Notes under the pieces: model-generated
What the model was told of the DNA's origin: nothing
Database searches by the model: none
Seen by the model: the letters and a program-made list of their open reading frames with translations, nothing else
From: Psammoneis japonica
Lineage: Eukaryota
Reading direction: 5' to 3'
DNA length: 58,056 nucleotides
NCBI GenBank assembly: GCA_008632985.1
Contig: QPGO01000075.1
Location: 312,517 to 370,572, forward strand
Translations under genes and position numbers: made by a program
Shown: positions 3,750-57,757 of the stretch, piece after piece
Layout of the letters: the number at the start of each line of letters is the position of its first letter
Numbering within the stretch: position 1 is the stretch's first letter

Positions 3750-4194
3750 TGCAACACACAGCTGCTGACAAGAGCCAATGTATCACGGCGACGTGTCACA
3801 GCCTTTAAATGTCACAAAGGGCGTGACAAAATAACCTTTTGTCTGCATGCATGCTGCGTTGTGAATTCACAGCGGAGTGGTGCATCGCAACCACCAGGCA
3901 GGAGGCCAGGGGTTCGAAACCCTGAGTGGGAGTTGTCTGCAGCAACGTTGATCACTGTCGAACGCGCAAAACTCTGTGCAGTTCTGTGTGTTCCTTCGTG
4001 CGTGCCCACACTGTTCCACCAAAACCGTGCAGTGTCAGTGCACGTTGGTAAAGAGCCGCATGGATGCGTGACACATGGGGAGGAGTGCAATGTGCAGCTG
4101 CCAACAAGAGTTGATGTGTCACGGCGACGTGTTACAGCCTTTAAATGTCACAAAGGGTGTGACAAAATAACCTTTTGTCTGCATGCATGCTGCA
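3750..4194 (+). mobile_element. TRIM-like miniature LTR element A (445 bp; 109-bp LTRs at 3750-3858 and 4086-4194)
   Basis: Two 109-bp direct repeats starting TGCAA; polypurine tract GGGGAGGAG immediately before the second repeat; GAGG on both flanks (3746-3749 and 4195-4198, a candidate 4-bp TSD). No canonical TGG PBS seen. Confidence 0.75.
3863..3932 (+). ncRNA. tRNA-derived Pol III promoter cassette (A box and B box) inside TRIM A
   Basis: CAGCGGAGTGG at 3870-3880 (A box TAGCNNAGTGG after TA->CA) and GGTTCGAAACC at 3911-3921 within a CAGGG/CCCTG stem. Acceptor and anticodon stems are poor, so it is not a functional tRNA. Confidence 0.5.
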
Positions 4195-15210: not shown

Positions 15211-16278
15211 GATGAACCTTGCATGTTGGCACAATTGTGCGATCACAAGTTGCTCATGGGAGGGTTGAGCTCTCATCTTGTGGCACCATCCAGGGCTAAA
15301 AAACCAGATCAACTCACAGAAACAATGGTGCGGGTGCATGAGCAAGGCCTTTTTGCACACACAGAAGCACAGGTGGCTGTTGCAAACTTGGGGAGAGCTT
15401 TCTTTGCTCCAGCGTTCCTGCCAACTCCCATGCACTGCAATGACAACACTCCCACGCACTGCAATGACAACACAAGAAAGTTTTAAGTTGGTTTGCTCCC
15501 TTGAATTCCATGTCTTCCTCTGGAACTTCTTCTTCCACTTCTTTTTGTCGGCTTTTTCTTCAAGCAGCTTGTTGGCAATGGAGCAATGGCGACATTGAGG
15601 TGCAATTGTCATTGTCGGAAAAAACTTTTGCCGGTGATCCTTTTCGCCAAACCTCACCAGGAGCAGAACAAACGATTTGTTGAAAAAAAAGGACCACCAG
15701 CAGAACAGCTGCAACAAGGCTGACATGCAACAGACTGCCACGTAAGTTAGTTGCGCGAGCTTCTAACATTTCAATTGTACCTCCTGTTCCTACATGTCGT
15801 TAAGATGCAACAAATGTCCAAAGGTGGTGGCGCGCCTGGGATGGGCGGTGATGGACCTCCACCCAATTTCGATGCCATGATGAACGGTGCTGCTGGTGGT
15901 GGCGGCGGTGGCATGCCGGATGTGGAATGTGGAGTCCATGGCTCAAATGATGCAAAGCATGCGCATGGAGGAGGCAAGTGGAAGCAGAAAGAACAATTAG
16001 TCAAGATACTTGTGATGACGCAGTTTGTGGAGGAGCAACTACCTACAGCAAAAGGATGGTATCCCACATGGTTCTCATAAAAGAATCAGAACTAAGCTTC
16101 TTGTCACCGATCAAGGATGTCACGAAAAACACTTTACAAATATAAATGCCATTTTGATTCAGTCTCGCTTCATATCCCATGCAGCTGTCAGATCTGAAGC
16201 TAGACAACGTGTCCTGCAATCCTCTGGCCCGGTAACAGTTCTGTTGCAGGAGTCACCTTCGCACCGATAGTCGGAGTG

Positions 16279-22400: not shown

Positions 22401-25400
22401 ACTCTTGTGCTGGAGAAAGTGTGGCCAACAAAAGGTTGTTGGCTCTGATTGCTGAAAACACTGACAAGTGAGTGCATTGTTGACAGTCTCCACAGGTGTC
22501 AAAATCATGATGAGAAAAGGAATGTCAAAATGAGCATTTGCAAGTCTGCAGACTTCACGTGCAAACACATTAAGAAACAAAACTGATTTTCTTGCAAGTC
22601 ATTTGACAATTTGTGGCTTTGACTTGAATTTTCCTGCCATGTTGCACAAGAAAATTCAAATTGAAAAAGCACAGGCATGATGTGCTTGGCATTTTTAAGT
22701 GCAAGATTTGGGTGCTTGTTTCCACCTCATGACAAATCACTTTTTCTGGCCAACCCCAAACTCAAACCACAAGCAAAAATGCTGTTGTGTGCTGTCAACT
22801 CTTTCCTGCTCTGATGTTCAAAACATGTCTTGCATCCAATGGTCCTGTTCACTGGAAAACAATGCCGCTCCTTTGCCAATTTGCTTGTGTGTCGGGGTGT
22901 GGCTGCATGCTCTGGTGGTTGGCTGTGCCTTGTCCTGAAGCCAGTCTTGTTGAAGCACCATTGTCCATGGAGTGGCTGCACCCAGCATTTCTTTTTGTGT
23001 GCTCCCAAGTGTGTTTTCTCTCCCCCCCCCATCTTTGTTGTTGCTCCAACCCACTTCTGGACTCACCCACCCATTCACTCTGTCTTTTTTCTTCCTTTTT
23101 CTGCCATTGGTGCAGGTGCTGTCCATTGACTCTGTTGTGTGTTCCTTCCTCTTCTGTGATCACACCATGCAGGTTGTTGTGTCACTTGATGCTGCTCTGG
23201 CTCTGTCCTTGACTCCTTTTGGCACCCTTCTCCTGGAGTGTGTGCTTTGGAGGCACGGGCTTTCTTGTCTGTTCCTTGCCACAGTCCTCCTCTTCCAGCT
23301 TGATTGTGGCAGTTGTGGCAGCCATCTTGCAGCAGCTCTCATGCACAACCCTGGCAAAAGCTTCCATGGTGCATGGAGTTGGCAAGTTGCTCATGCTTTG
23401 TGTTGCACTGTCTTGAGCTGTTCCATTCCAGCCACCACCAAAGAACAGAAGTTTTTCTAAGAACCAGAAGTGCATGTGCTTGACAACTCCCAACCTTTCT
23501 TTGTGTTTTGGCTGCTTTGGGCTGTTGTCTCCAGCCATGGCTGCAAACAGTGCAGTGCAAGAATGAGTGAGACATCTGTGCATGGTGGCACTTCAGTGTG
23601 AACAAGCTTGTGCTTGCCAATCATCTTCTTCATGAAAACCTCCTGTCTGTTGTTTTGTCATTGACCAAGCCATTTTCTTGCTTTTTCCTTGCTGGCTCTG
23701 CTCCCACCAAACCACACAGTCATCCTCTCAGCCATGTCAAGGTGCTTGCAAACCTCTTTCTGCACTTTGCTTCCAAAAGCCAACTTGACATTTTGTGGAT
23801 TGTGCACTTGGTCTTTGGGCACACCATGGTTGTCATGCAGTTGATCATCTGACCATCCATGAGCTTCTTCTTTTGCCACATCTGAATGCTCCTGCACTGA
23901 GCACAATTGCAGGATGCCATCTGTGCAACATCATGGGTGTGCTCACTTCAACAAATGACCCAATGGTGCTGGCACAAAAACTGCTGCTGTCTCTGTGGTG
24001 CTCTCAGCTGGTCAATGCATCACACACACCTGATGAGTCATTGTGCATCAGTGTGTTTGTCAACTGGATTTCACAGCACTGTGTCCCTCAAATGGAGCTG
24101 GAGAGCAAAATTGTTCATGGCAGGGATTTCAGGAGACAGCTCTTGTGGTGGGTTCTTGTTTTTGAATTGGTTGACTGTGGAAACTCTCCCAAGAAGAAGT
24201 TGCTTCAGTGTGGGAGCAACTGTGCTGGGCAACACAAAGCTCAGCTTCAAAATAAAAACCCAAGAACAGGGAATTCATCAGCTGGCATGCAGTCTGCCCA
24301 ACAAAGGCTCCTCTTGCACAGCTTCAAGGAGCTTGTCCATGACACCAGCTGGGGCATCCTTGAAGCAATGTGGGCCCCATGTGTGAACCACAGGGATGGT
24401 TTTCTTGCCATTGTGCACTTTGGGAAAGACAAGATCCTCATTGGCAGAAAGGGCATCATCTCTTGACCCAACTCAACAAAGCCACCAGAGTCAACACATC
24501 AGTGGTGAGCTTGTCTGCCAAGAAAGGAGGTTCTCCATCATCAAATGATGGAGAGGGTGAGCCATCATTGTCCAAAAAAATTGCTCTGAATCATTGTCAG
24601 CAGCTGGCACAACACAGCATTGTCAAGGGAACAGCACGACTCTCACATTTGCAGGAAAGCATGATTGGCTCTCAATGTCTGGGGATTGTGTCAAGTGCAA
24701 ACTTGTGGGGCCAATGCAGTGGTTGAGTGAGACAAACCAATGCCCGTTGCAGCTGGGAAGTGGCAGGGTCAACATGGTCTTTTGGCTCTTCCATTGGCGC
24801 CTCTTTGCTGTGCACATTTGCTGCTTCAATGACAGAAACATGAGCCCATTGAGCAAACATGAGTTTGCGTGACAAATGCACTCTGAGGTGCAGCTGCAGA
24901 GTGCCAGTGATTGGAAGGTGTGGGGGGCAGTCATTTGTTTGAGCAGCTGATGGTGCCATGGCTCACAACAGAGTGAACAAAGATGGAGGTGATGTCATCT
25001 TCATGCCAGTCAGCCCCACTTGCACAAGGCAGTTGACAATTGAAGACAAGTGTGGCTGGCCACAATGACAGAATTTTGTCATGCTGGTGTGCATCTCAGA
25101 CCCATGCACAACCAGACAAGTGACTGCAATGACTCCAGTGATTGAAGCTGGTGAGGTTCAACATGACTGCTCAAGTGGCAGCACTCACCTTGCTTGAGTT
25201 GCCAACAGCAATGGTGCAACAACAACAAGTGCTGTGGTCAAGAGGGAGAGAACAAAAGCATGGACAATGGCATGTGGGAACTGCACTCCAGAAAATGTGT
25301 CAGATGTGTTGGTTGGCTGGCTCTGCCAGTGACAAAAACAGAAGAGGGTCATCACTTGTTGGTGTTGTTCTCTGGGTGTGGTGCACCTCTTTGTAAGACA

Positions 25401-28400
25401 GACCAGTGCTTGGGGGTGTGTGTGTGGACAAAGTGACTGCAAAACAGTGAGGTGCTGCAGTGACAAGAAGAAAGGCAGTGTCCCAAGTGACATGTGAGCT
25501 CAACACTCTCAGCGGACAGCTGAACATGCAGCAGCAGGAGTGGCAGGGCATGTGGACAAAAAGTGGGGCAGCAAACACAGCTCAGCACAGTTGCCATCCC
25601 AGCAAGAGTGCCATGATGTGCAAGGTTTGCATGTCCAGACAGGACTGGCACCACTGGTGGGAGAAAAGCACACAACTCTTGTGGTGTGCAAGCAACAAGA
25701 GAACAGTCAGGTGGCACTTTCCCAGCCAGCCAGCAGAGAGCTCAGTCATTTTTCAGGGCCTCATTGTGCATCATAAAAACAGCTGTCGAAGCCATCACAC
25801 ACACAAGAAGAGCCTGTTCATGCCTGAATGACAAAGGTGCATGCCATTGAGCTTTTGTGTCAAAATGAGAAAAGCAGCGTCAAAAACAAAAAGCTCCAAG
25901 ATTGGTGCTTCAAGGCTGAAATGAGTTGCCACTGCAAGCTTGCATCTCTGCCACCAAGAAGCCTTTTTCAAAAAGTTCACCACATTCTTGGACAAGGCAC
26001 ACCTGCTGGAGTGCTTCACAGATGCAAGAACTCTTTTTGTGTGCAAGTGCTGCACTTTACAGTGCTTGTCTGAGCAACACAGTGTTGCAGAAATGTTGAC
26101 TTTGCACCACAGTTGCCTGTGAAAAACATGTGTTGCTGCTGAAAAGGCCAGCGCAAAATCCAAGTTTTTCCACATGGCGATGGCAGGTGCTGCTGCTGTT
26201 GAAAATGTGGTTTGTCCAAAAGCAATGCACACAAGGACATTGATTTGATGCAACATTGATGTTTGGCATCAACAACAACTGTGCATGTAAAAACATTGCT
26301 CTCATGCCTGTCAGGAGACCAATCATGATGAATCCACTGTTGGCGGCAAAGTCAGTGAGATCAAAAGTGCCACCAACAACCTTGAAGCACTCAAAAAAGA
26401 CGTTGAAACTCATTTTTGAGTCTTTGTCACACACATTCAAGACCCCAATCATCGTGCAACATTTCAGCCAGGAAAGAGGTGGTTTCTGCCCACCTCTGTT
26501 GAAAAAGCATGGGCAGCATGCCCCATGTTTCTGAGCAGGACATGCCAAGGGTGTTCAAGCCAAGGTGGATAAATTTTTTAGAAATTTCCATTCTCAGAAC
26601 TCAAATCAAGATCCGTTGGCAAACGCAAATTTGTCACAGTGAAGATGAGCCACCAAGACTCTGGGCATGGCGACAACTGCACACCACACTGTCATGACTT
26701 CCACAAAAAAAGTGGAGATCCCATCAATCCATGCAAGGCCACAGTTGTGTCACAAACAAGAGATGAGAAGGCATCCAGCTGACTGCTTGGAGAGGCAAAT
26801 GTGATGAATCTTCTGTTTCTTCATAAAAAACTTCTGCAAACAAGGAAACAACAACACTGTCAGCAGAAAAAGACCACCACTCTTCCTCAGAGCCTGCAAC
26901 CACAGCTGCAGCCACACCACAATCTCTGGGCAACATGAAGAAAAAGCCTCCAGGCCCAGCAGTGCAAGCAACTCCAGCAGCAGTCATGTCAGCAGCAGAC
27001 AATTGAAGTGCTGGAAATGCCAACCCGCCATCTCCAAATGGTTTTCTGGAGTTTGAAAAATCACTGCAAACAGCTCAGCTTGACACATGTCTGATGCACA
27101 CTGTGGGACACACTGTGCATGAGCTGGTCACCATGCTTTGTGGGGACCAGAGCTGAAAAACACTGTCAGATTCAATGGCCAAGTTGGTTCTGGTTCAGAG
27201 TTGATTTGTGACTGAAGGGTGCAAGAGGCAGCACAAGAAGCACTCGGACCCAGCAGTGGATGCATTGGTGGTGGCAGTTGCAGCACCCAAAACACTTGCT
27301 CACTTTGAGGACAAAGACAAAGACTGAGCAATGGAGAAGATGTTTTCCAAGGATGAGAGAGCTGAGTGCAGAGTGCAAATGTTGGGTGAAGAGGACACTT
27401 TGCAGTTGCAGCAGGTTGGTGGGATGTCAGACAGGAAAATGGCTGCATTCAGTCAAATGCTCTCTGGTCTCTTGGGAGTTGAATTTTGTGATCACAAAAA
27501 CATGCTGTCAAGATTGACAGAGGGGTCAATGATGGACTTCAAAGTGAAGGTTGTGGCAAAAGGAGAAGAGGCAGAGCAACAAAGGTGCGCTGTTGACCAT
27601 GTCAGTGATGTGGCATGCAACTGCACTGTGTCATTGTGTGACTCAAAGCTGCTTTGGAATTCTTCTTTCAAGTCTCTTCCAGATGACAGCACTGTCATCT
27701 TGTGCTTTGGAGGGGACAAAGGCAGCAAGTTTGTGCAGTTCAAGCATGGACTTGCAGCAGTCAATGGGGTTGAGCTCAATGGCACAGATTCATTTGATGC
27801 TTGCACTGTGCTTGATGCACCACCAGACACATGTTGCAATCTCAAGAAGGGTGTTTTTGATGTGACAAAGGATGAAATGAATTTCCATTTTGATGCCACA
27901 CACAAGGAACCTCCAAAGGTGGCTTTGTTTGCATTCAAGGAGAGGGTTCTTTGTGTTGCCATGTGCAGTGGAGAAGAATTGCTGTTTGACAACTCACAAG
28001 AGACACAATGCTCAATTGAGTCAGACTCAGTTTTGCAAGGGGTGTGCTCTGGTGGACCATGCTCCTTTGGTGACACCTCAAGAACATTGTTGCTCCAGGA
28101 CAGCAATGTGGCATGGGGAGTGAAATTCCCAGACATGGGGCAGGATGAGCAAAACACTGTCAGATTCAAGCAGCGAGCCCACATTGAAAAAACAACTCAA
28201 GGATGTCAGAGCAGCATCACGACTCACATTGCATTCTTGGCAGTGACACTGATTTTCTTGACATTGCACTCTGGGTCTTCATGGATTTGCTCTGTGACAT
28301 GCTGCCCCTGCCATCTCTGTGAGATCACCTTGGAAACCTTGAAGACAAGGGGAAAAGACATGGAATGCAGGACAACACATGCCCATGAAAAGTTTCAAGA

Positions 28401-29880
28401 ACAAAAACAAGCTGCAAAGGAGAGCTGCTCCATGAGCCCCAAGCAGTCAATGCCAGCCAACTTTTCTTGCATTCTCATTGTCATGCTTCATGTTGTTGTT
28501 TTGGGTGTCACAAAGAAGTTGTGGAATGAGTCAGTTTGCAAAATCCAAGAAGTTGTTTTGACCATGGAAGTGACAACCAGTGCCGGGAACTTGCCAACAC
28601 CAGGGACTCACTCATGACACACTCACTGTGCACAACAATGCAGAAAACAAGAAGCTGGTGAGGAAAAACATGTCAAGCACACAGAAGACATTTGCTTCAA
28701 GAAACCATGGGAAAAGCATTCTGAGGCCCAACAAAGTGGCACCTGGAACGCAAATGTTGAGAAGGTTTTGCATCAAACTCATGCAAATGCATGCCAACTT
28801 GCAAAGGATGCAAAAGAAGCATGGAACAGCAGGGATGAGAGAGTGCTGCTGTTGCTTGAAGCACCACCAAAGGAATCTGAGCAGATGTGCCTAAAAGAAA
28901 AAAGAGGGTGGCATGAGCAAGTGTTGGAAACACACTGCTGAGTGAGTTGCCAATGAAAGCAAAGCACAACTCATGCTGCAGCAGAGCTTTCAATGGAAAC
29001 GAGGATTGCTTCAGATTGTTGATGAAAAATTGTCAGTTGCTTGTGTTTGATCTTCTCTGAGGACAGCAGCAGCTGAAGCCAATGGAGCACAAAAGACAGA
29101 GAAAATTGCAGCTCATCATGAAAGAGTCTGGAGCACATTTGCCAACATCATTCCATTGTTCTGCTCCACTCAATTGTTGTCACTGCTGGGGAGCATGTCT
29201 TGCCACTTGAAGATGTCAAGACATGTTGGACAGAGTGCATCGACAACACATCAAAGGCTCCACAACCCTCAAGATCCATTTCCTTGCACATCACATGGAA
29301 GCCATGCTCTCTCTCTGTGGTGCTGTTGGATTGTTGGCAGAAGATGGGATGGAATCCATGCATGCCATTGTCAAACACACTGGCAAGGTCATTCGCAGCG
29401 TTGCCCTCAGCACGGGGCACTGGCTGGGCATGTGGTCAAGAGAGCCTTTGGGCAAGAAAGAGAAGTGCAGTTTCCAAGGAATGTGAGGCCAGTGGCAAGC
29501 CATCCAACAGAAGGAAGACAGTGCAGGGAAGGAGTGGGAACAAGAATGAAGTTGCCAGCACTTTTCAACTGACGTGGGTTGACGCCGCACCGCATCTCAC
29601 ATGCCATCAAGTGTTTTGTTGTTGACGAGCAAGGTTCAAGGTGAGTCTGAAGACGGACCAACCTTTCCTCCCAACTTTCAGCCAATAGAGTGTGAGAAGT
29701 GCCAGGATGGGGTGGGCACATATGTTGCAATGCCCAACGTGTTGATGCCGCTGCATCACTTGTTGCATTGTGTCGAGAGGAGCACGAAGCTTGAAAAGTG
29801 AGAAAAGATGCATTTTTTCATGTGACATCAGGTCATGGGTTAAGTCACTCTCTGTCGCCATGCACGCAGGGCCCTGCTGT
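19435..29880. mobile_element. TpA-depleted block of degenerate transposon DNA, block 2
   Basis: TA is frequent up to 19434 and then nearly vanishes for about 10.4 kb; contains a DDE transposase relic. Confidence 0.8.
27331..29400 (+). pseudogene. RAG1-core-like (Transib/Chapaev-type) DDE transposase relic, frameshifted
   Basis: Ordered motifs: FGGDKG (first catalytic D), DT(C)(C)NL, CPCHLC, MLHVVVLG (PLHxxLG-like), FNGN near 28990, KIHFLAHH and GLLAEDGMESMHA (KxHxLxxH...GxxxExGxESxH, catalytic E). The 428-aa ORF has no Tyr. Confidence 0.6.
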
Positions 29881-44620: not shown

Positions 44621-47600
44621 GACTGGTGAGTGCAATGGAGGGTGTCTGTCCGCTGAGTCTTGTTCATTGTTCACCTCAAGCTCCACATGCATCAAAGGTC
44701 ACACATCTCATCAGAGCACCCGTTGCAGTGGTCAACACCGCCTTCTTTTCCCGCGGTGATTTTTTTTTCCTTTTGCAGGTTAAAACAATGTGCACTGTCA
44801 AACCTCATTGTGTTGACTGTGATTGAGGATGAACAATTTTGTGCCATGGGGTCTGAGGATCTCCCTGCTCCCTGTGAGAAAACATGTTTCACTGTGAAAC
44901 AACCACCCGTTTTTCCCATGAGAGTGCTGCCCACCCCCTCCATCCCCGCGGGTTGTTGTTTGCATTTCATTCAAATGACACTGATGGAGACAACACTGTG
45001 CAAGTTTGCAGCAGCAGCTGCAGCTCTTTTTCTTGAAGTGCCACTGCCAGCAGCCACCTTGTTCATTGCCAAAAAGTGCAGAACATGTTGTGAGAGTGCA
45101 GCCAGTGTGGATGAGCCAACACAGCCAAGAACAGGAACAGCAACACAGACTTGCCGGTGCATCCAGTGCCGCTGATTCTGGAGCAGGTGAGTTTGCAGCA
45201 GGAGCTGCTGTTCCATGATTTGAGCTGCTGCTGCTCTGACCCACCTTGTTCATTGCCAAAAGGGCAAAATGCCAACTGAGTTTGCCGCGCACCTCCCCAT
45301 GCTGTGGATGGTTTGTTGATGGCATGTTTGGAGCAAGGACCAGAAACAGCAGAGAGACTTGGGAAGCCTTTAAAAATGAGCTTGACAACTCAGGCAACCT
45401 CCAATGGGTTGCCCCCCCACTCTCTGCCTCTGCAGTCTTTCTGGATCTGGANGCAGTCTTTCTGGATCTGGACAAAAATTGGAGAAGACAGGTGCAACAT
45501 TGGCAAATGTGTCAAAAACCAATGAACCTCTTTTTGCACATGCCTTGTTTGAAGAGTGTGTCACATGTGGTGAGCACTGTTTCATGTGTGCAATTCTGAG
45601 AGCCATGGGAACAAGCACCACCTGCAGTCTTTCTGGATCTGGATGCAAAAATTGGAGAAAACAGATGTGTTGTTGGTGAATGCATCAAAAACCAATGAAC
45701 CTCTTTTTGCACATGCCTTGTTTGAAGAGTGCCATTTGTGGCAACTTGCAACAATTCTGGATGCAGAACTCTGAAACATGCAATTGTGCCAATGCTGCAG
45801 AAAAGTTTGTGTGACATGCATGTGCACAACAACATGCTGGCTCAGCATTCTGGATGGCAATTCTTTGATGCAGCAGATTTGTGACAGCACACTCACAATC
45901 ACTAAACTCAAGCAATGCTCCAATCAAAACCCATCTTGACCAACCAGAAGGACAGCAGGTCTCGCCACACATTGAGCTGCTGTCATCGGCCTGTGGGTTG
46001 GAGTTTTTCACCACCATGGCAGGTCATTGATTTGCAGCTTTGTGACCACATGTAGAATCCATGTGAATCATGACATTGCATGCTCTTGCTTTTCAGTTTT
46101 TGGTGAGAGGGTGTGCACTGTTGTGAAGTGTGCAGAAAATTGCACATGCAAAAAAATGCTCAAAATGCTGTGGACCAACAGGCAGTGCAAATCTGGGAAT
46201 CACAAAGAGAAATTTAAAATGAGGGTGGGTCACGTGCATGTGTGAAGCAGACTGCACATGTGCAAAGATGTGTGCACATGTGAGTGGGAAGGGCCAAAGT
46301 TAAAACCAAGTTCAAGTTGATGATTGTCAAAAGGAAACCAAATCATGCATCACAAAAAATGGATGTCAATCCCAATTAAAACAAAATTGCATGCATTTGA
46401 TTGAAGCTTGTGTGCAAGAAAAGCTGGTGAGACATCAGATGAAACACACAAAACAGCTGCATTTTGTTGAGCACTGTTGCTGGCATTTTTCAAATTTGGC
46501 TTGTTGGCAATTTCAACAGTGCACATCAAAAAATTTACAAAGGAAAGTGGAGACCACTGTGTTGCAGCCTCTGATGCTCAAAAGTTTGTGGATGGTCAAC
46601 TGCGGCAGTTTTTGGAGAACAAATGGTGTGCAGCCACCACACACACCCTCATGTCAATGATGTGCTCAAGCTCTGTTGCTTTTTCTTTTTCTTGCTGACC
46701 ACATTCAAAAAATGCAAAGAAGTGCCACAGAAACCCAAAACACAGGACAAAAAAGGCCAAGAAGAGCCGCATGACAAGGTGTGCAGATGTCTGGGAAAAA
46801 AAGGTGCATTCTCAGCAGCATTCCTGCTCTCTTGTGAGCCAGCCAGAAGCCAACATCACTGGGGATTTTTGATGCATGTTCTGAGTTGTGGAACATTGTT
46901 GCCAGCCAAATGCTCCAGACAAGCCATGTGGTGAGTGTGGAGCTTCAGCTGCTCAAAAGACATTGACAAAGCTTGCTTGTGAGACATTGATGAAGCTGGA
47001 TGCTGCTGCCGCTGCTCTGGTGCTGCTCATTGTTTGAAGTGACTGCTTGTGCAGCCCTTGTTTGTTGCAAAAAGAGCTCACAATGGAAGCTGCTGCTGTT
47101 CATCACCATCATTTGGAACATTTGCTTGTGCACAGCCCTTGTTTGCAACAAAAAATGTCAAAGCCACCACCATTGCTGCTGCTGCTCATCATCATTGGGA
47201 GCACCTGCTTCATGTGACACTTGCTTGCCTGCAACAAGATGTTGGCTGCTGCTGCTGCCTCCACTCATCATTTGGAGCAACTGCCTCTGCTCTTCTGAGC
47301 TGGTGCTGCAGCTTGATGTTAGAAGACACACAGCTCCTGCTCTGGCAGTGCTTGTGCAGAGACTGAAGCAAGCTCCAATGAGCAAACACAGAGCCCCCAA
47401 ACCAATGGCATCTGGCACCAACTTTTTACAGTCAATTGGCAAAAATGTTCTCTCTTGGCAGCACTTTCATCTCTCTTTGTTGTTTTCTCCTCTGCACCAA
47501 GAGCACCAAGGTCCTTTGCAACATTTTTCTCATCACATGTGTGCGCTGTTGTCAGCAGCTTGCAAGAGACCTCAATTTGAAAATGGGGTTGGTTCATTTT

Positions 47601-49526
47601 CCTTGTCATTGGAACTTTCTCAAGGGGAGTCAACAGGTCCAGACAATGACGTTTGTTGCTTTTCCCTGCACTGCAAAGCTGACCAATCTCTCTCAGGTGG
47701 AAAGCATGCACAAAATTGTCCACAGACAAATGGCAGTCTGTGCTGGATCCAGCAAGAAAGTTTCCAAAACATTGTCGGCAAAGTGAAGCTTTCACTTGCA
47801 TGGACTTGGCAGTGTTTTGAGTTGGAGCAATCTTTTTGCATGAGACAAAACAAGAGAGCAGACAGAACAGGTCCATGTCATTGTTCAATGTGAGTGTGGG
47901 TTTAGAGTGCCAACAGAGGTTGCAGTGTGGACAATGACAAAGTGCAGATTGCATGAAATGCATTTTCTGACAGAATGAGCCAAAATGCCAAAGATGCTGA
48001 TCTAAGAACAAGAGATGGCTTGTGATGTGCAACTCCAGAAAAATTCAGCAAAGACACATGCCAGTGCTCTTTTTCAGGTCGTTTGCTCGATGATTGCCCT
48101 CCAATTGTGGCATCCTCAACAACAAACGGCGGTGACAAGACAAAGATGTGGACCTGCGCAGAGACCTCATTCACACCTTGTTGGTGCAAAACCTTTGAAG
48201 CACCAGGGAGTGCATCCATTGTCAATGGGGTCAACATTGACGAAGCTCTGTGCAGATCCATTTGGATGAATCCCAACTCTCGAAAGCGGAACTTGCCATT
48301 GATCGGCTGCAGACACATTCCAGACATGGTGGGAATCTGTGTGACATTGGGCCCATGGAATTCCATGTGCAAGCTCAGCAGTAAAACCATCAGGCAATTA
48401 ATGCGCCAATGATCGCCAACAGAAAATGAGGCAATTTTGCGAACGCACAAACTCGTCCATGATTGAAGTGCATCATTTTTTGCTCAGCCAGGTGCACTCT
48501 TCAGACATTGAAGAATGCACCTGGAGCATTTGTGTTCCTGTGATTTTGTCAAACAAAACATCTGGGGTTTCGCAAAACAGCAAGTCTGGAACAATTTTTT
48601 GGAAGATCACACGCAGAAATGTGCACGCGAAATGTGCGACGGATGAAAAAAACAATTGTGTCACACGTCAGCACTGCGAGCTCCCACCTGCCAGGGCTGG
48701 GACGCATCTGCAGTTGCACGAAAGTTGTTGCGTTTTGAGCTGTGCCAGCCAAAGAGGGGAACTGTGCAATCTGGCTGCGGCTGGGTGGGATCACAAACAA
48801 AGCCTTCAAGGCGACACAGGGTGCAGCCGTTCTGCTGTGTGGGGCCGCCGTCAATGTGCTCTCCTGAGTCACTGTCCTGGACAATGTCGTCAACTTCTGT
48901 GTGCCTCTCAGGCTGTGTTGTGATGAAATTGTTAGAAAGCTGGTCATGTCACCAAGCAAACATCGGAGCGGTGCTGCGTGGTTGCTCCTCATGTGGACTG
49001 AAGATGTGGCCATTGAAGACAAACTCACGGCATCCATTTTTCGACGTTCTTGCGGTTGCTTCCAAAGACAAAACATGACTTTCAGGAACGGAATTCCAAC
49101 ATGGATCTGATGATGCAAAATGGTCCTGCAAGTTCCCGTTGCACCATGTGTGCATTGGAGTTGGGCCATTGGCATCGGGACAGACATCACTCGCAAGACA
49201 AAATTTGTGCAGTTTGTGACTTTCTGCCAAAAAAGTTTTGCCGTGCTTGCAACACAGCAACCAAGGGCAACTTTGGACAATCAAGGTGAGTGCAATGGAG
49301 GGGCTCCACCCACCAACTCTCATTTGTTTTGCACTCCTTGTGCACCAGAGGTCTGACATGCATGTCAAAAGTTTTTGGACAGTGAGCTGTGTTTTGGACA
49401 AGAATGAACGGCTCTTGCTCACCTGCTGAGTGTCCAGTGCAGCTCAACTCCACTGCACTTGATGGGCTCCAGTCCCAGGTGGTGACATTGGGCCCACAGA
49501 ATTTTGCGTGCGAGCTCCGCAGCAAA
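44621..49526. mobile_element. TpA-depleted block of degenerate repeat DNA, block 3 (host of the copia insertion; continues at 57349-58056)
   Basis: TA nearly absent; internal duplications at about 45431-45560/45623-45731 and 47040-47280; 48428-48708 is homologous to 57396-57675. Confidence 0.75.
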
Positions 49527-49802
49527 TGACAGAAATTGAAGGCAAATGGCAAGAATTCAAACAATGACTCCTCACTGCTGTCTAAATGGCAGATGAGTCT
49601 CCGCTCAGAGACTGTCACAGGAGCCGAAAGACGTGCAAGTCGGTGCAATCGGGCTACTGTCATTATTCTTGTGAGCCTTGTGGCTCGAAAGCAAACTACA
49701 TCGCGCGTGAACGCGCGGAACTAAAGCACACAAAACTGTGCACGGTAAACTAAACAGCGCGCGATGCTTCGCGCGCACCCAAATCCTGTTCAAATCCTGT
49801 CA
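49527..49802 (-). repeat. 3' LTR of the copia element
   Basis: 262/276 identical to 56357-56632 by manual alignment, no indels; preceded on the minus strand by the PPT. Confidence 0.95.
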
Positions 49803-52800
49803 CTCCCCAGTTTGCTTGAGGAGCCACAGAAACAGATTCGACTTCAGATGGAATGAAGTTCCAGAACATGAGGGGGCGGAGAAGGTCCCAGATTTGGGAG
49901 CAACCCCAATGCTTGCTGAGAATGTCAGCAGGGTTGCGGGAGCCTTCGATGAAGTGGAACTCAAGGTAACCAGAGGCAATTGCCTCACGCACACGATGGA
50001 ACGATAGTGCGGTGTGTCGTTTGTGTAACTTGGAGTGCGGGATGGTGGCACTGTCTACAACTGACTTGTTGTCACCGAACATGTAACTAACGTTACGGAT
50101 CGGGACGCCAAGGTGGCGCAGGGTGATGCGCAGGTCGACAATCTGCTCAACACAAGTCCTTGCGGCAACAAATTCAGACCCGCAGGTCGCAGTCTCCACG
50201 GTGGCTTGTTTCTTAGAGAACCAATCAGCCGGGAATTTGTTGAGGAAGTGGAGCATTCCCATGACAGAGCGTCCGGTGAGCATGCAATGGTGCAAGTTTG
50301 CATCGACGTAGTGGGTGGCAGTGACGAACTCGCCAAGGGGCGGTGGAGCGTCCTTCGGGATCATCTCTTCTGCTTCACCATGCACGGAATGCATCCATTC
50401 ATAGGCCGGAGCAGGGAGATCTGAACAGTCGGGCTCTTCCGTGCGAACGCGGAGAGCACCGTGTCGCATCTTGGAGAGGTGCCCACAGACGCGTTTGGCA
50501 CGATCCAAGTGGCCTTGACGGGGCGCAGCTCGGAAGCTAGAGAGTGACATGACGGCCGTGGTAATGTCAATTCGACCAAGGGACACTGCCCATTGGAGTG
50601 AACCAACAAGAGACTGGAACTTGTGAATGCCATCGGGTCCCAGCAGTTCGGAAGTGTCCAGTTCGGGGTGGTCACCCTTCTCTAGAGGTGACAGGGCGTT
50701 GGTGGGGTTTCTCCCCAAACAGTCGGGCACAGCTGTCGACCATGCGCTCGATGTACTTGCGCGGAGACAGGCACAAGGTTCCGTCGGGTTCCCGGGAAAA
50801 GTCGCAACCCAGATGGAACTCAATGGGTCCCGCCCTTGAGCTTGAACTTGTGCTTTTCCGTGAGAGTGTCGACGAAAGATTGAGGGTCCTTCATGGCAAT
50901 GGCGAGGTCATCCACATAAACGGCAATGTGTTCACAGTGGTCGCCGTTCCTGCGCATCCAAATGTCGGGTTCGGCGCGGCAGGGGAAGAAGCCTTCAGCT
51001 CGCAGGCAGTCGGCGAAGCGCTCGTGCCAGCGGAGACCGGAGCTGCGCAGTCCATGCAGTGCCTTGTGGATGACAAGGATGTGTCCTTCGAGTTTGCCGA
51101 ACTCGGGTCCAGCTACAATGTAAAGCTTCTCCTTGGTGGTGGCTTCAAGGTGGGCATTGCCAATGTCGGTGGCCCATGTCTCCAACTCGTTGAGTTCGGC
51201 CAGGAAAATCATCAGCCGAAGGCCACGGAGGGAGACTACTCCGGAGCAGACACTGTCGACAGGTACGTCCGTGAGGTGCCCGTCGGCTACGAGTCGTGCC
51301 TTGTGGCGACCGTCGTGTTTCACGTCGTGCACCAGGTGCACTCGGATCTTCTTGTGTCCCGCAGGAGGAGTGGAAGACTTGAAGGGCCCGCAGTCATGGA
51401 AGACTTCGTATTCGTCGAGTTGGTCCATCTCGAGATTAGTTGCGTCTCCCCACTTGCGGTTGCCGTTGCGTTTGTCTGGTGACATGGCGTGTTTGCAGTT
51501 CCGGGGAACTTCGCATCCACACTTGTAGCGAGGTGCAGTGCGGAAGGAGCGAAGCTTGGCTTGGTTGGCCATGCGAAACAGCTTCTTTTGGCGCCTCGCA
51601 ATGGTGCGGAACCGCTTCCAGCCATCCGTGTCGAGGAGTCCGTTCTCTCGTGCATGGATGGCACAGGTGATGGGGTCGTCCTTGGCGATGATGGCAAGAG
51701 GCTCGGACGTGATCTCCCCACTTTCCCATTCAAGCATGATGTTGTAGCTGGAGCCTTTCCAGGTTGGGTCGTGAGGCTTCAGAGGTCCTTCGTGTGACAC
51801 GATGCGTCGAAATTTCCAAACAGTGGTGTCTTCGTCTTCTTGCTCAATGTGATTCATGATGTCATTGCAGGCAAGGACTTCCTCGTATTCGTCATTGTTG
51901 ACAGAGCAGACGAACCCAGTGAGCTCGGGATTGCCGTTCACTTTCCATTCGTGGTCTTCGACGGCCTTGACGATGCGAGCTCTGTGGCGTTGTCCGTCCT
52001 CTTGTGGCTGCATGAGGAAGGTGCGTCCAATGATGTCTTGCGGATCGAAAACTGGCATCTTGGGTGTCCTGATCTCCCCATCAGGAGAGTCGACGGGGTT
52101 GTCGTCATGGCGAGATTTGATGATGGGTTCAGGTGGCTCCCCATCAGGAGGATCAAGACGCAGGTTTCAAATGGCAGGATCAGGGGTGGCGGAGCGGATG
52201 TTGGACCGGTGGAGGATTTTCTGAGTCTCATCGGACAGAATCTTGAAGGTCATCTGGTGGCCAACGTGCTCAGCAATGCCAACGAAGCGTCCACGCAACT
52301 CACGGGATTCGGATGGCCAATCGGAGTCATCGAGGTGGAAGCACACGGGTTCCCACCAGTGAAAGCGAAGCAATGGGCTGATGTCCGGGGTGGAGCCAGT
52401 GAGAGTCTCGAGGGGCGTGCGCCAGTGGAGACGTGGGGACGCTGTGTGGTTGAGCATGAAGCACACGCACATGAGCGCCAGCAGCCATGTGTGGGCGGGC
52501 GAACCAAAGCGATCCATGACAGTGTTCGCCATGCGCTTCACGGTCTGGTGTTGATGCTCGGCAAAGTTTTGGTGTTGCTGGTGAGGCTCACTTTGCCAGC
52601 TAGAGATGAAGAGGGCGCGCAGGATCCCGAGCACTTTGTGGCTGATCTCAACTTGAGCACGGTCGCCAATGAGTTTGGACGGGGCACCACGTTCACGGAT
52701 CTGATCCTCGAGTGTGTTGACAAACTCTTTGTCCGTCTTAGTGCCGTAGACGTCAGTGACGGTAGACTCGGTGCCAACAAACAGTTGGGTGCTGGTGCAA

Positions 52801-55415
52801 CCAGAGTCGACGGCCGGGGTGTCGGCATGAACGGTGTCAGTGGCGACAGGCTCGTTGCGGCGGTGCACATTAAGGGCGGGGTTGGGTGATTTGTGGGCCT
52901 TGCGAAGGTGTGTACCGGCGGGCATGCGGGCGTACTGCGTGGTGCAGTCAAAAGTACGACGGACCGTGTCGGCAGGTAGGAAGCCAAAGCAAGGCCGAAG
53001 AGACTCGAAGGGGGGGTCCTTGGGCTGTACAGTGCGCTCCGGAGGTGGAACGTCATCGCCCTGGGGGCCAATCGCATGCAGATGACACTCGTAGAACACG
53101 TCGTCGTTCGGAATGAGGTGATCATCGAGGGCGGACGCGTGATCGGCAGACAAGGAAGCGGACATGATGGTCTCGTTGACAACGACACGATGACGGTGGT
53201 TGCCGCATTCGTCAAATAGGTTGGCAGTGGGATCGTCCTGCAGGTCAGAGATCGCGTCGCACCACTGGTCGTCGTCAGTGACAGAGTGATCGAGGACGGA
53301 AGGGTCCCATGTGTCATCACCGGTGAGGATGACATGGGGCAGGGTGTCCCATTCGGCGTCAGTGTGAGGTCGCATGGCAACACAAGGCAGGCCAGCCTTG
53401 ATGTCAATGGGGATGACATGGCCATCAGGAGTGGCAATGCGTTGCAAGCCGTTGGGCACCTTGACAGAGCGATCGTTGACATCCTGTTTGCACCATTCGA
53501 GCTGGCCGCAGGAATGGATGGTCTTGCCCTTGCCCGTGTGTGCGCACTGATGGAGGATGGCGATGACGGGACCATGCTGGGTCTCAACAACGGCACCAGC
53601 GGTGACAATGGGGATGTCCACCAATTGATGATCGTCAATGCCCTGAACGTCGACTTGGCGAGAGGTGCATGCAATGACGCGAACGTCGTCGCCAGCAATG
53701 CCGCCGTTGGCCCCACGATCGACTAGAGCGCCAGTGCGTGTGGAGCGATGAGCAGAGGCAGAGCAAATGACATTGTGGTTGTCAACGCAGCGGCAAGTGC
53801 GGCCGTCAAGTTCCATGTCATCTGCAGAGGCTGGCGGGGTAGAGGAAGCGGCGGATGGCCCCGGTCGACTGGCATTGGGGGCTTGGTTAGGAGACAACAG
53901 ACGTTGCAGATCACCGGGTGGCAGTGGCTTGCGCTTGGTGAGGTGCGCCAGGATGGGATTGTCCGAAGTGGCGTCCACATGTGGAGCGGAGTCACCAGAG
54001 TCAGCAGGAGTCGTGTTGGACAAGTTGACATCACCGTCACTCCCAAGGTGTTGGTCGTGAAGGTTGGCCGTAACAGACTCATGGCAGTCACTGGCTCGCG
54101 GGTTGCGGGGAGGTGGACGAGAATGCTCAAGGATGATCGCCTTGGAGGAATCGGGCAACGAATCCCAGAGCCGTTGGTGGTCGGGAGGGAGACGTCTCCA
54201 TTGGACACCGGTGAGGCTGGGACCGCGGGTGCAGGCAGCATTGGCTTGAAGGACATCAACGTCGCTGTCAATGTCGTAGAACACATCGTCGGACGGTTCC
54301 TCGGAGCAGACGTCGTGTGCGTGTGTGGCGCGTCGGGGAGCTCGAGGTGTCGTCTTGGGTTGAAACGTGCTGTCGCACTGAGCTGCCGCGGAGAGGAGCA
54401 AACCACAGTGTTGGTCGCATGTGAGGCTCTTGCCACTCTGCGTGCGATGCTGATCAGCTTGGTTCTTGACAGCACGGAGTTCCTCGACAGGGTGCACGGC
54501 ATTCTCGAGCATGACGCGCTTCTGTCCTTCAGAGAAGTGGTCACTGGCCGGGATGAGTGCCTCGCACTTGCGCAGCTGATCTTGCCAATGAAGGATGAAC
54601 CCGTGGGTCGGACCTTTCCAAGTGCCATCACCAAGACGTGCGGTGGTGAGGTGCGTGAGCAGGGTGGAGGACTCGACAGATGCGCGGGTGGAGGCAAGCG
54701 CGTGCTCAGACAAGGAGCGGCAGACAGTCTGTGCGTCAGAAGACCCCACATTTTCGCGAATGAGAGCCTTGCCCTTGTCGGTGAGAAGGATGCGTTCGAA
54801 GACGGCGAACATGTGCTTTTGCTGTTCAGCAAAGAGCAGTTTGTCTTCGGGGCTGGTCGGTTTGTACGACGAGTCTAGAGTGCACTCGACGTCTTGGGCA
54901 TGGGCTTGTGCCACAAGTGAGGTGTGCCAAGTGTGCCACTGCTTGTCGGATTTGAGAGCCGTGAAAGCGGTGGGATCACGCTTGATGCCTCGCTTGAAGT
55001 CCCGCACCGGGTCACGTGCCTTGGTCGGGTTGGTGACATGTGGAGGTGCAAGGGGTGAGCTGCCGATGGACACAGAAGACATGCAGTCGGGGCTGAGGCG
55101 GCAGGCAAGGAACTCGTCATGCGTGAACAAAGAGGAGTCGTTGGCAACGTCAAGACCTTTGTGTGCTTTGACAATGTACAGACTGACCAGTGCTGCTAAC
55201 ATGTTCTTATAACCACGGGGCAAAGGGGTTGCATTAGTGCCGTTGTCGCACTCAAGCGAGTCGATTTGGGACGGGATGAACGTGAACAGTTCCTGATGCG
55301 AGTCCATGCCATCTTGGGCCAAAGCCAAACGAAGAGGACTCCCAGCACCTTGGGCAAGCACGGTTCCAACCACATGCTCGAAACCATCGGTTTGTTGCTG
55401 ACGAGTGAGAACCAT
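49750..55415 (-). pseudogene. Copia gag-pol polyprotein, inactivated (in-frame TGA at 52167-52169, frameshifts near 50830 and 50700, many Tyr->Cys/His)
   Basis: Protease LVDRGANGG; integrase VATDTV, IGDRAQVE, SEPHQQHQNFAE; RT HKARLVA, DIGNAHL, ALHGLRSSG, YVDDL; RNase H YVDANL, GSEF, GDNKSV, NPADILSK. Confidence 0.93.
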
Positions 55416-56341
55416 GGCAGACAAAAGTGGTGTCAGGACAATCAATTCTGGTTGGGAAGCGAAGGTGGACTCGAAACTTGGGTGAGAATGGACTTGACTT
55501 GAAGTGGACTTGACTTGAAATCTTGAACTGTCTTAAAATCAGAAGTCGCCGGGCTTTGTTGTCCCGTTCGTTGTCAAGTGCTAAACTTCCTGTCCGGTCC
55601 GTAGAGTTGTGCCGGCACGTCCGAACCCGCAGCTGGCGGCGCTTTGGGTTGCTTGCGAGCGGAGTGGCGGGTTGCAAACCCCTGCAGGCAAGCTGACCAG
55701 AGGTGGACAAGACCCCCGAACCGTTCTCATTTTATGTCGGTTGGATTTCCCGATCAGGCTGGCCAGTTGACGCAGGCGTCAGGCGCTGTGGACGAACGAA
55801 CAAACGCGGGAAAGCACCCTCGCCCCAACGCAGGCTGCAATCACGACCACCTGCTCTCACAGTCGTCCTCGTGGACCTGGCAGAACTGTGGAGCACCAGC
55901 AGTCCGGGGTGGATCAGGTGCAATGGACTCGGTGTGCTTGTAGAGTGGCAGCAAAACCGCAGTCCGAAGAGTGGACAAAGGTTCTTGGCCGTGAAGACAT
56001 GCACACATGTGTGTGTGTCTTCAGCGACTGAGATCCTTGAATGTGCGGGGTTCTTGACCGTCAACCGAGGAACAGGCACACAAAGGGATGTTGATCAAGG
56101 ATGGACTTGGACGTGACCGTTGAATGTGAGTCTTCAGCGACCAAAGGCAGCACAATCAATCCAGACATCCAGCGGCAAGGAGACTTGATGGTGACGTTAA
56201 CTTCCTGCCGATGCCCTGGCATTGAATGCGCGCAGACTTGCCGACACATGTAGAACACATACGGAGGTCCACGCAGAATTGAAATGGCATCGTTGGCAAA
56301 TCAACGACGACGATGGCGGTTGCTCAATGGGTTGACAATGA

Positions 56342-56356
56342 GCAAGACTGTCAATC
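56342..56356 (-). promoter_or_regulatory. Putative half-tRNA-type primer binding site of the copia
   Basis: No TGG after the 5' LTR; the plus strand reads GCAAGACTGTCAATC, an anticodon-loop pattern GA-CT-NNN-AA-TC, which would be GACTGTTAATC (Asn, GUU) before a TA->CA change. Confidence 0.45.
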
Positions 56357-56632
56357 TGACAGAAATTGAAGGCAAATGGCAAGAATTCAAACAACAACTC
56401 CTTGCTGCTGTCTAAACAGCAGATGAGTCTCCGCTCAGAGACCGTTGCAGGAGCCGAAAGACGTGTAAGTCGGTATAATCGGGCTGCTGTCATTATTCTT
56501 GTGAGCCTTGTGGCTCGAAAGCAAACTACATCGCGCGTGAACGCGCGGAACTAAAGCACACAAAACTGTGCACGGTAAACTAAACAGCGCGCGATGCTTC
56601 GCGCGCACCTAAATCCTGTTCAAATCCTGTCA
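56357..56632 (-). repeat. 5' LTR of the copia element
   Basis: Direct repeat of 49527-49802 with TG...CA termini. Confidence 0.95.
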
Positions 56633-56692
56633 TGACAGGATTTAAACAAGATTGACCAACTCGATTAAATCCGACCCATCAACCTGAAAAAT

Positions 56693-56756
56693 TGCGATAC
56701 CCAGGAATCGAACCTAGGTCCTCTTATAACCGGTTACCGTCTAAACCATTTACCGC
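56693..56756 (-). ncRNA. tRNA-like Pol III unit in the 3' LTR of TRIM B (64 nt, no canonical anticodon arm)
   Basis: GCGGTAAATGGTTTAGACGGTAACCGGTTATAAGAGGACCTAGGTTCGATTCCTGGGTATCGCA: acceptor-like GCGGTA/TATCGC plus A, A box, T arm CTAGG-TTCGATT-CCTGG, then ATTTTT terminator. Confidence 0.7.
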
Positions 56757-56857
56757 TTTCTTCAAACTGACAGGCTTTTTGTACATAGTCACACATGTTT
56801 CAGCCAGAGAGTGACATACACCTTTAATTCTTCTTAGAATTCTGTCACTCCCCATAT

Positions 56858-56893
56858 GTCACGAAGCTGTCTGACGTCACGAAGCTGTCTGAC
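56858..56893. repeat. Perfect 18-bp tandem duplication GTCACGAAGCTGTCTGAC x2 in the TRIM B interior
   Basis: Read directly from the sequence. Confidence 0.9.
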
Positions 56894-57193
56894 GTTCCTT
56901 TCTTTGGACAATGATACTTCTCACAGCTCCCCTTCTACCTGGGCCACATTTTTCTGCACATGTCATGACCTCCCCGGCGAACTGATAATTGGGCGGCCAT
57001 TCCGGCCTCGGCATCCCTAATAAGAGCACTATGTGCATCGTCGGTCTGTCTCACCGCAGCCTCTCCTCAGTTTTAGAGTCATCTTGAAGGAGCACACACA
57101 CCTAGGTTCAAATCATCAACGGTCCTCGCACCATGACAGGATTTAAACAAGATTGACCAACTCGATTAAATCCGACCCATCAACCTGAAAAAT

Positions 57194-57257
57194 TGCGATA
57201 CCCAGGAATCGAACCTAGGTCCTCTTATAACCGGTTACCGACTAAACCATTTACCGC
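57194..57257 (-). ncRNA. tRNA-like Pol III unit in the 5' LTR of TRIM B
   Basis: Same as 56693-56756 except the A box reads TGGTTTAGTCGG; followed by TTTTT. Confidence 0.7.
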
Positions 57258-57757
57258 TTTCTTCAAACTGACAGGCTTTTTGTACATAGTCACACATGTT
57301 TCAGCCAGAGAGTGACACACACCTTTAATTCTTCTTAGAATTCTGTCAGTAAAATTGTTCAGCAATGGACACATGAATGATCACCAACAGAAAAAGAGGC
57401 AATTTTGCGAACGTGTCTCCTCCTCCACACTTGAAGCACATTCTTTGCAGCATGCCCGGGTGTGTTCTTCAGACATCAAAGAATGTGCCCAGCGCATTTT
57501 TGTTGTCACAAATGCAGACAACAGAAAGCCTTCAGCTTCGCAAAACAGGCAGTGTGGAACAAATTTGTGCAACAGAACATGCAGAAATGTGCGCGCAAAA
57601 CATGCAACGGATGACAAAAAACAATTGTGTCACAGTTCAGCAGTGCGAGGTCCCACCCAGAGCTGGAATGCATCACTTGTCAAATGTGGTGTTTCTCTTC
57701 CTCTTGGCTGGAGGACAGCTCCAGCTCTCCAGAGGTGGTTGGTGTGTGTGATGTGGT

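Follow-up and report, generated by a model that had tools for sequence, protein, structure and literature searches.

Repeat-induced point mutation (RIP), known from Neurospora and other fungi, is triggered by duplications above a length threshold and converts C:G to T:A at CpA, with TpA becoming enriched and the GC content lowered. APOBEC3 enzymes act earlier, deaminating cytosines on the minus-strand cDNA before integration and leaving strand-specific G>A changes in both long terminal repeats (LTRs) of an element, and in animals the editing of RNA or cDNA from retroelements is a familiar phenomenon. Here we analyze a Ty1/copia LTR retrotransposon (hereafter copia) located at positions 49527-56632 of a 58,056-nucleotide stretch of Psammoneis japonica DNA (contig QPGO01000075.1, positions 312,517 to 370,572 of the forward strand). 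This whole stretch is referred to as the window, and all coordinates are those of the window. The mismatches between the two LTRs of copia are probably explained by a mutator directed at TpA, which changes A:T to G:C in the integrated element.

In the chlorarachniophyte Bigelowiella natans, integrated giant-virus and virophage DNA is reported to undergo T/A>C/G hypermutation restricted to TpA, the changes arise de novo in mutation-accumulation lines (in some lines only), and an ADAT2/TadA-type adenine deaminase has been proposed (Mettrop et al., bioRxiv 10.64898/2026.01.13.699255). This is the closest known case. The two share nearly exclusive A:T>G:C change, its restriction to TpA, its genomic nature, a foreign or mobile target, and depletion of TpA with enrichment of CpA and TpG. 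They differ in host, which here is diatom-like, and in target, here an LTR retrotransposon of high copy number. In addition, the present evidence comes from comparison of an LTR pair and of outgroups, and older blocks lose CpG as well. The word 'diatom' is absent from the text of the B. natans preprint (bioRxiv 10.64898/2026.01.13.699255). A literature search in which supplements were not opened found no description of the signature in diatoms, and the passages covered of a study on diatom LTR elements (PMC2806351) contain nothing on the mutation spectrum.

With RIP, the locus shares dinucleotide-specific transition hypermutation of chromosomal repeats on both strands, inactivation of transposons and distortion of LTR dating; unlike in RIP, A:T is changed to G:C at TpA, TpA is erased and GC is raised. 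The likeness to APOBEC3 would lie in context-dependent deamination that inactivates LTR elements. Unlike with APOBEC3, however, it is adenine or thymine that is changed, and in contrast to both APOBEC3 and ADAR, both strands are affected and the two LTRs are unlike each other (13 TA-type bases).

Mismatches between the two LTRs

A repeat search and alignment identified the LTRs of copia as gap-free direct repeats of 276 nt at 49527-49802 and 56357-56632, with the ends TGACAG...CTGTCA. Because the coding strand is the minus strand, the left LTR is the 3′ LTR. The LTRs and the steps at which they differ are as follows, with LTR positions counted along the repeat.

49527..49802, minus strand: copia LTR, the 3′ LTR in the sense of the element (repeat search and alignment)
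56357..56632, minus strand: copia LTR, the 5′ LTR in the sense of the element (repeat search and alignment)
49565..49656: hot tract in the left LTR (LTR positions 39-130, 92 bp), with 13 of the 14 mismatches
56395..56486: hot tract in the right LTR (LTR positions 39-130)
LTR positions 39-40, 47-48, 61-62 and 90-91: reciprocal TG/CA steps (four)
LTR positions 110 (CA/TA), 118-119 and 120-121 (TGCA/TATA, the differing bases being 119-120), 129-130 (TA/TG, base 130) and 254 (CA/TA): TA against TG or CA (five steps)
LTR position 87 (TG/CG): CG/TG step (one)

Altogether, the LTRs differ at 14 bases, 100% of which are transitions, without a single indel, and the differences occupy 10 pyrimidine-purine steps. 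The first-pass annotation, made from the letters of the sequence, had reported precisely this tally (14 transitions and no indels at 10 dinucleotide sites, five with TA against TG/CA, four reciprocal and one CG/TG). Of the bases of the LTR, 52.2% belong to pyrimidine-purine steps. When the changes were placed at random within the LTR 200,000 times, the probability of finding all 14 changes in such steps was 8.5e-5 (1.5e-3 if they are treated as 10 events), and that of finding at least four steps changed at both bases was 5e-6. In repeat pairs of related elements on metagenome contigs, some of which are situated at the ends of contigs and could be products of the assembly, the mismatches falling in pyrimidine-purine steps numbered 6/20, 4/23, 9/31, 31/72 and 8/13.

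Over the whole LTR, six TA sites are intact in both copies and five are hit in one copy, 19 CG sites are intact in both and one is hit in one copy, and the four reciprocal sites are additional to these; the left LTR contains seven TA and the right LTR ten. Visible TA site-copies are changed in 13 of 30 cases, compared with 1 of about 490 other base-copies, a per-site rate at TA that is a couple of hundred times the rate at other bases of the LTR pair. Within the hot tract there are one TA/TA site, four single-hit sites and four reciprocal ones. The same 92-bp tract is heavily changed in both LTRs, and the CpG-rich part (approximately LTR positions 170-250, i.e. 49700-49780 and 56530-56610) retains its TAs and CGs in both.

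Reverse transcription derives both LTRs from a single template, and they are identical at integration; the present differences between those of copia imply that the change took place after integration. The LTR pair thus lends support to the proposal of the first-pass annotation that the changes arose in chromosomal DNA after insertion, and we infer that in the LTRs they arose in place, gene conversion being the main rival. The raw LTR divergence is 5.07% and drops to 0.36% (one site) without TA-type changes, the LTRs of an adjoining mini element differing by 0.93%. These values support an inflation of LTR dating by about an order of magnitude (14/276 against 1/276, approximately 14-fold), in line with the earlier expectation that age would be overestimated here.

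To what dinucleotide the reciprocal sites go back had been left open between TA and CG. Under a likelihood model with independent hits and either outcome equally likely, in which the four reciprocal sites were assigned to TA or to CG, an origin from TA is favored over one from CG, the likelihood ratio being 45,000 when the LTR is taken as a whole and 693 within positions 39-130. The fitted per-copy hit probability is 0.51 for the whole LTR (observable classes only) and 0.76 for positions 39-130. The ratio of 693-45,000, together with four sites on tyrosine or aromatic codons in the copia family (see below), favors TA, although some of the reciprocal sites may have come from CG.

We propose the following course of events. 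The element would have integrated with identical LTRs, after which a mutator acting on chromosomal double-stranded DNA would have converted the A:T pair of TpA into G:C, yielding TG when the adenine of the strand shown was struck and CA when the adenine of the other strand was struck. Individual TpAs would have been hit independently in each LTR, with a probability of about 0.5 for the LTR as a whole and of about 0.76 for positions 39-130. Five single-hit and four opposite-outcome double-hit sites would then account for 13 of the 14 mismatches, a roughly equal number of same-outcome double hits being invisible, and the fourteenth mismatch (CG/TG) would be an ordinary CpG transition. The same process would have removed approximately 60-70% of coding TA steps, converting Tyr to His or Cys, and almost all TA from the older repeat blocks of the window. 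As to chemistry, deamination of adenine to inosine in 5′-TA by a DNA-acting candidate enzyme resembling TadA/ADAT is tentatively preferred, in line with the proposal for B. natans. Because TpA is self-complementary, adenine deamination and thymine modification (T>C) leave the same footprint.

Direction of change, strands and dinucleotide landscape

The interior of copia provides the direction of change, its restriction to TpA, its presence on both strands and a contrast with genes and outgroup elements. For polarization at the DNA level, element positions 330-3480 were aligned with 26 outgroup loci, and columns conserved at 80% or more were considered. Among 19 conserved TA steps, six are kept, seven have become TG, five CA and one AA, so that 12 of the 13 changes give TG or CA. 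By comparison, conserved TG is kept at 30/30 steps, CA at 22/23 and CG at 10/10, and a change from TG or CA to TA is observed in 0/53 cases. Thus, 32% of TA steps are kept, compared with 78-100% for every other conserved dinucleotide. When 25 outgroup loci were subjected to the same test, TA had changed to TG or CA in 8 of 478 cases (Fisher P = 1.4e-14 against the element).

The protein sequences tell the same direction. Of 27 columns in which Tyr is conserved (at least 70%), five keep Tyr, nine have His, ten have Cys and three have Phe, whereas other conserved columns are changed in 37 of 550 cases (P = 1.6e-19). Turning TG/CA back to TA recovers the consensus residue at 24 sites, and turning it back to CG does so at five. 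In the polyprotein as a whole, Tyr amounts to 0.90%, compared with 3.78% in 270 relatives, and both His and Cys are elevated. Judging from these sequence comparisons, the change runs from TA to TG/CA, with CpG decay appearing as a minority contribution. This direction, derived from the coding part, is the opposite of that in RIP.

One further contig carries a similar pattern. The metagenome contig L008 (2561 bases), which belongs to a different copia family (approximately 69% protein identity), keeps 10 of 19 TA steps, with five changed to TG and two to CA, and has a TA observed/expected ratio of 0.33. The other 25 related loci retain 82-100% of conserved TA steps. The loss of TA in L008 indicates that the signature is present outside the element studied here. 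A flanking-base preference of the mutated TpA was also considered (base 3′ of A: C 18, T 8, G 8, A 3) and rejected as biased, because most polarized events were found via TAC and TAT codons.

Regarding strands, 37 events could be polarized (24 in coding sequence and 13 in the LTRs, the latter with TA ancestors assumed); on the plus strand, A>G accounts for 16 of them and T>C for 21. The two kinds are interleaved along the sequence, with 25 runs among 37 events (probability of as few runs, 0.985). As both strands are changed and the changes are interleaved, editing of sense-strand RNA and strand-coordinated editing of cDNA are excluded as the sole cause, and the pattern speaks against strand-coordinated deamination of single-stranded DNA. 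It is consistent with either adenine (or thymine) of the palindromic TpA step being struck independently in duplex DNA. The earlier view that opposite strands were hit independently, which was held to argue against RNA or single-stranded cDNA editing, is borne out by these 16 and 21 interleaved events.

Composition along the window agrees with a process that removes TA from mobile DNA. In copia, the observed/expected ratio of TA is 0.09-0.29 and that of CG about 0.9, with a GC content of 57-59%. In the stretches at 16-20 kb and 30-44 kb, which have sharp edges and which we take, from composition only, to be genic, TA observed/expected is 0.4-0.8, and in 79 related loci it is 0.33-1.06, mostly 0.6-0.85. 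Low TA alongside CG of about 0.9 in this young element means that TA is lost much faster than CpG. By this measure the change is confined to mobile or foreign DNA, and the presumed genes are spared. The first-pass annotation had named ordinary spectra in other LTR pairs as an outcome that would speak against its reading; within the window, four other duplicated stretches in TA-poor blocks have 12, 2, 4 and 5 reciprocal CA/TG sites, so that this outcome is not seen there.

Older blocks of the window (3001-15500, 20001-29500 and 45001-49500) have TA observed/expected ratios of 0.01-0.15, with TG and CA at about 2, and sharp borders to the TA-normal stretches. Their CG observed/expected ratio is approximately 0.02-0.16 in the cores and approximately 0.3-0.6 in the edge kilobases and at 48-50 kb. 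The single N of the window, at 45452, is located inside a TA-poor repeat block.

Internal control, family copies and alternative explanations

A small LTR element directly adjoins the right end of copia, and the pair is enclosed by one target-site duplication.

56633..57348, minus strand: mini LTR element of 716 bp abutting the end of the copia LTR, with 215-bp LTRs at 56633-56847 and 57134-57348
49522..49526: left target-site duplication, GCAAA, identical to the right copy at 4/5 bases, the difference being CA against TA
57349..57353: right target-site duplication, GTAAA, flanking the composite of copia and mini element

The mini element has the same TGACAG...CTGTCA ends as copia and, like it, a TGGGGAG tract next to its LTR. 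Neither element has a target-site duplication of its own: they meet end to end at the junction CTGTCA|TGACAGG, with one 5-bp duplication around the composite, and in paralogous empty-site contigs position 49526 is joined directly to the sequence after 57353. This would reflect either one joint integration of copia and mini element or a second insertion without a duplication of its own, and the shared single duplication (49522-57353) suggests that two cDNAs were linked at their ends and entered the chromosome together.

The fates of the two partners nevertheless contrast: copia has an LTR divergence of 5.1% and has lost most of its TAs, whereas the mini element has a divergence of 0.9% and retains them. 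Between the mini LTRs there are two mismatches in 215 positions, a T/A transversion and a TA/CA difference, compared with 14 of 276 in copia. TA site-copies are changed in 1/28 cases in the mini element and in 13/30 in copia (P = 4.6e-4), and TA occurs 7-12 times per 200 bp in the mini element, 0-6 times in the interior of copia and 0 times in the flank beyond the mini element. If the two are of equal age, intact TAs of the mini element beside a mutated copia suggest that it is the element or its family, and not the chromosomal region, that is recognized. Since it is the 7.1-kb, very high-copy copia that is mutated and the 716-bp mini element, with a summed depth of approximately 900-4,600, that is not, a length or copy-number threshold for targeting is also compatible with the contrast. 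ARAGORN detected no tRNA in the mini element, and Rfam returned for it only a weak match to a transfer-messenger RNA model at 56700-56750 (12.9 bits, below the gathering score of 47). The stretch 56690-56750 in the mini LTR, and likewise 57190-57250, resembles the T-arm and acceptor of a tRNA.

Other copies of the copia family were compared using contigs of four runs of one sample over 49000-57400, with site readings taken from 40 of 534 difference rows. Contig depths add up to 40,000-280,000 over the element and to about 100 in the flank, and the copy number of the family is of the order of a thousand or more. Differences of the family from the present copy comprise 130 A>G, 109 C>T, 115 G>A and 114 T>C, with 57 transversions. 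Among the rows listed, paired TG/CA polymorphisms are found at 49765/6, 50114/5, 50381/2, 51328/9 and 51247/8, and in 5/5 of them the imbalance of shares demands TA, not CG, as the third state. Four of these five pairs fall on Tyr or aromatic codons of the relatives (60/61 Tyr, 60/61 Tyr, 44/45 Tyr, and 26 Phe/16 Tyr), which means that the copia family does include reciprocal TG/CA sites whose descent from TA can be demonstrated.

Several observations weigh against a TpA mutator acting in place on the LTRs. The direction assigned to the 10 LTR sites comes from the coding interior, not from LTR copies of the family: a degenerate LTR pattern with Y/R at each pyrimidine-purine step had 0 matches in the metagenome contigs, the search for LTR similarity in the 79 related loci returned only one 15-base chance match, and none of the 40 of 534 family difference rows lies at the 14 LTR mismatch places. 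The four runs, moreover, come from one sample that is maybe the source of the assembly, and are not independent of it. The whole-LTR fit of the independent-hit model is rough, with 6/5/8 observed against 3.8/9.4/5.8 expected at p = 0.55 (four assumed invisible same-outcome double hits included), because the hits are concentrated in positions 39-130 of both LTRs; the clustering of mismatches within these 92 bp would also fit a conversion tract. At 49742, 50422, 50729, 51519 and 51600, this copy has TG or CA where the family majority has CG, i.e. ordinary CpG losses, to which the five CG-restoring sites are to be added, and in view of such losses some reciprocal sites could still be derived from CG. 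Finally, at 49967, 50005, 50089, 50402, 51238 and 51526, TA in this copy faces CA or TG in 55-91% of the family depth, which alone would suggest change toward TA. Relatives, however, have Tyr/Phe at 50402, Val (45/45) at 51238 and Tyr/Phe at 51526, so that TA is ancestral and the family majority derived at 3/3 testable sites; 49967, 50005 and 50089 are synonymous or variable in the relatives and uninformative on ancestry. Because the majority is derived at these sites, a majority consensus is a poor root for the copia family. As for how TG/CA became the family majority at ancestral TA, either already-mutated copies were amplified or some sites are preferentially changed in one direction.

Among the alternatives, ectopic gene conversion or recombination could have imported a patch of about 100 bp into one LTR, in which case the pair would represent two separately mutated copies. 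The great abundance of the family (depth of 40,000-280,000 against about 100 in the flank) and the mismatch clustering noted above speak for this. However, about 11 of the 40 listed family differences lie outside TA/TG/CA/CG steps, compared with 0/10 LTR sites (P of about 0.04, estimated as 0.72 to the tenth power). We regard conversion as unlikely, and even then the imported variants would be products of this TpA mutator in integrated copies, with only the dating argument altered. It is distinctly improbable that the four reciprocal sites represent methylated CpG in which deamination struck one strand in one LTR and the opposite strand in the other, with only the five TA-containing sites left to a TpA process. 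Methylated-CpG decay does produce TG and CA, can yield reciprocal TG/CA, and accounts for one of the 10 LTR sites (CG/TG) as well as for the CG depletion of old blocks; CpGs are lost elsewhere in this copy, and the old blocks, low in both TA and CG (CG 0.02-0.16), indicate that such decay acts on repeats. Yet CpG decay leaves TA alone, whereas in copia TA is mostly lost and CG is nearly intact, with an observed/expected ratio of about 0.9 and conserved CG kept at 10/10 steps. In the LTRs, 19 CG are common to both copies and one is single-hit, next to which four double hits fit independence poorly (ratio 693-45,000), and in the family four TG/CA polymorphisms occupy Tyr or aromatic codons, all 5/5 paired sites leaning to TA.

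An artefact, either mis-polishing among thousands of near-identical copies or base-calling error at modified TpA, appears very improbable. High-copy repeats are prone to mis-polishing, and the contigs come from one sample, maybe that used for the assembly; but identical contexts of the two LTRs have opposite outcomes, unlike what a context-driven error would give, TA, TG and CA variants occur at the same places at high depth in contigs of four runs, the loss of Tyr codons and TA across many kilobases exceeds any local polishing error, and a metagenome contig of a different family (L008) has the same loss. Editing before integration, whether A-to-I on the element RNA or deamination of single-stranded cDNA, is known for animal retroelements, and the interior changes alone are undatable. 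LTRs are nevertheless identical at integration and 13 TA-type bases differ between these two, A>G and T>C are nearly equal and interleaved on the sense strand, and repeat DNA of the window other than retroelements has the same signature, which makes this explanation highly implausible. Hardly any credence is left for a RIP-like polarity, in which TA would have been made from ancestral TG/CA by deamination of the cytosine in CpA (read as TpG on the opposite strand). TGCA against TATA is the pattern expected from RIP, six interior sites have TA here and CA/TG in most of the family depth, and within a TA-poor host repeat the target-site duplication has GCAAA on the left but GTAAA on the right. 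The first-pass annotation had itself cited ancestral TG/CA as evidence that would overturn its reading, and the interior points the other way: 12/19 TA are lost, TG/CA became TA in 0/53 cases, and Tyr changed to His or Cys 19 times. TA is depleted rather than enriched (0.09-0.29) with GC raised to 57-59%, TA is ancestral at the 3/3 testable sites where the family majority is TG/CA, and for reciprocal TG/CA to arise from one ancestor by RIP two changes would be needed.

Element architecture and implications

The coding part of copia is read from the minus strand and consists of the following features.

49803..49809, minus strand: polypurine-tract-like TGGGGAG adjoining the 3′ LTR, inferred from position and from the same heptamer beside the LTR of the mini element
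49753..50704, minus strand: C-terminal part of the reverse transcriptase (RT) and RNase H-like part (P0001 residues 65-385; alignment, 3324 relatives at E <= 0.001)
50833..52166, minus strand: N-terminal part of the RT (Pfam RVT_2, E 2.4e-22 on the frame 50820-52058)
52167..52169, minus strand: in-frame TGA stop in a variable linker (frame reading)
52170..55532, minus strand: open frame of 1121 aa upstream of the RT (10488 relatives at E <= 0.001)

The element is a Ty1/copia LTR retrotransposon: RVT_2 lies between LTRs with TG..CA ends, and the RT is near the C-terminus of the polyprotein. In an intact relative (P0123), RVT_2 occupies residues 1367-1577 of 1881. The best relatives of the RT/RNase H product (P0001) are 54-77% identical and mostly metagenomic, one being labelled Cylindrotheca. 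Pfam recognized no family in the 1121-aa frame or in P0001 even at E 0.1, and in the intact full-length relatives P0123 and P0130 it recognized only RVT_2; we read the 1121-aa frame, by its position, as gag-protease-integrase. The frame 52170-55532 and the same part of intact relatives thus combine thousands of relatives with no Pfam family, as in a poorly modelled copia lineage.

The copy is defective, with one in-frame TGA and two 2-bp gaps. The gaps, at approximately 50705 and 50832, correspond to CA dinucleotides that are absent here and present in about half of the family depth, and they cause the two frame changes in the RT. Relatives have P, R, T, N or E at the place of the TGA stop, which is uninformative on its ancestry. 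No second copy of the copia family was found within the window. The last open frame enters the LTR by about 50 bases (49750-49802), and both strands of the element hold open frames of hundreds of codons. The stops TAA and TAG disappear when TA is lost.

The copia LTR pair represents a compact natural experiment, in that it records hits on both strands after integration. If TpA hypermutation of integrated mobile DNA acts in diatoms as it does in B. natans, then a defence or mutational system has probably been overlooked that is widespread in the stramenopile, alveolate and rhizarian (SAR) lineages, with a TpA chemistry opposite to that of RIP and APOBEC. It is conceivable, though rather doubtful as things stand, that diatoms carry a genome defence that edits duplex DNA at TpA, by deaminating adenine or modifying thymine, and is aimed at transposon families rather than at regions. 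Such a defence would be a counterpart of RIP with the opposite chemistry; homology, copy number or small RNA would guide it, and Rhizaria would have it too. In practical terms, LTR-divergence dates of diatom retrotransposons would be strongly inflated, and majority-rule consensus sequences of such families can hold derived states. TA-free open frames on both strands would mislead gene finders, and homology-based repeat annotation would miss heavily rewritten copies.

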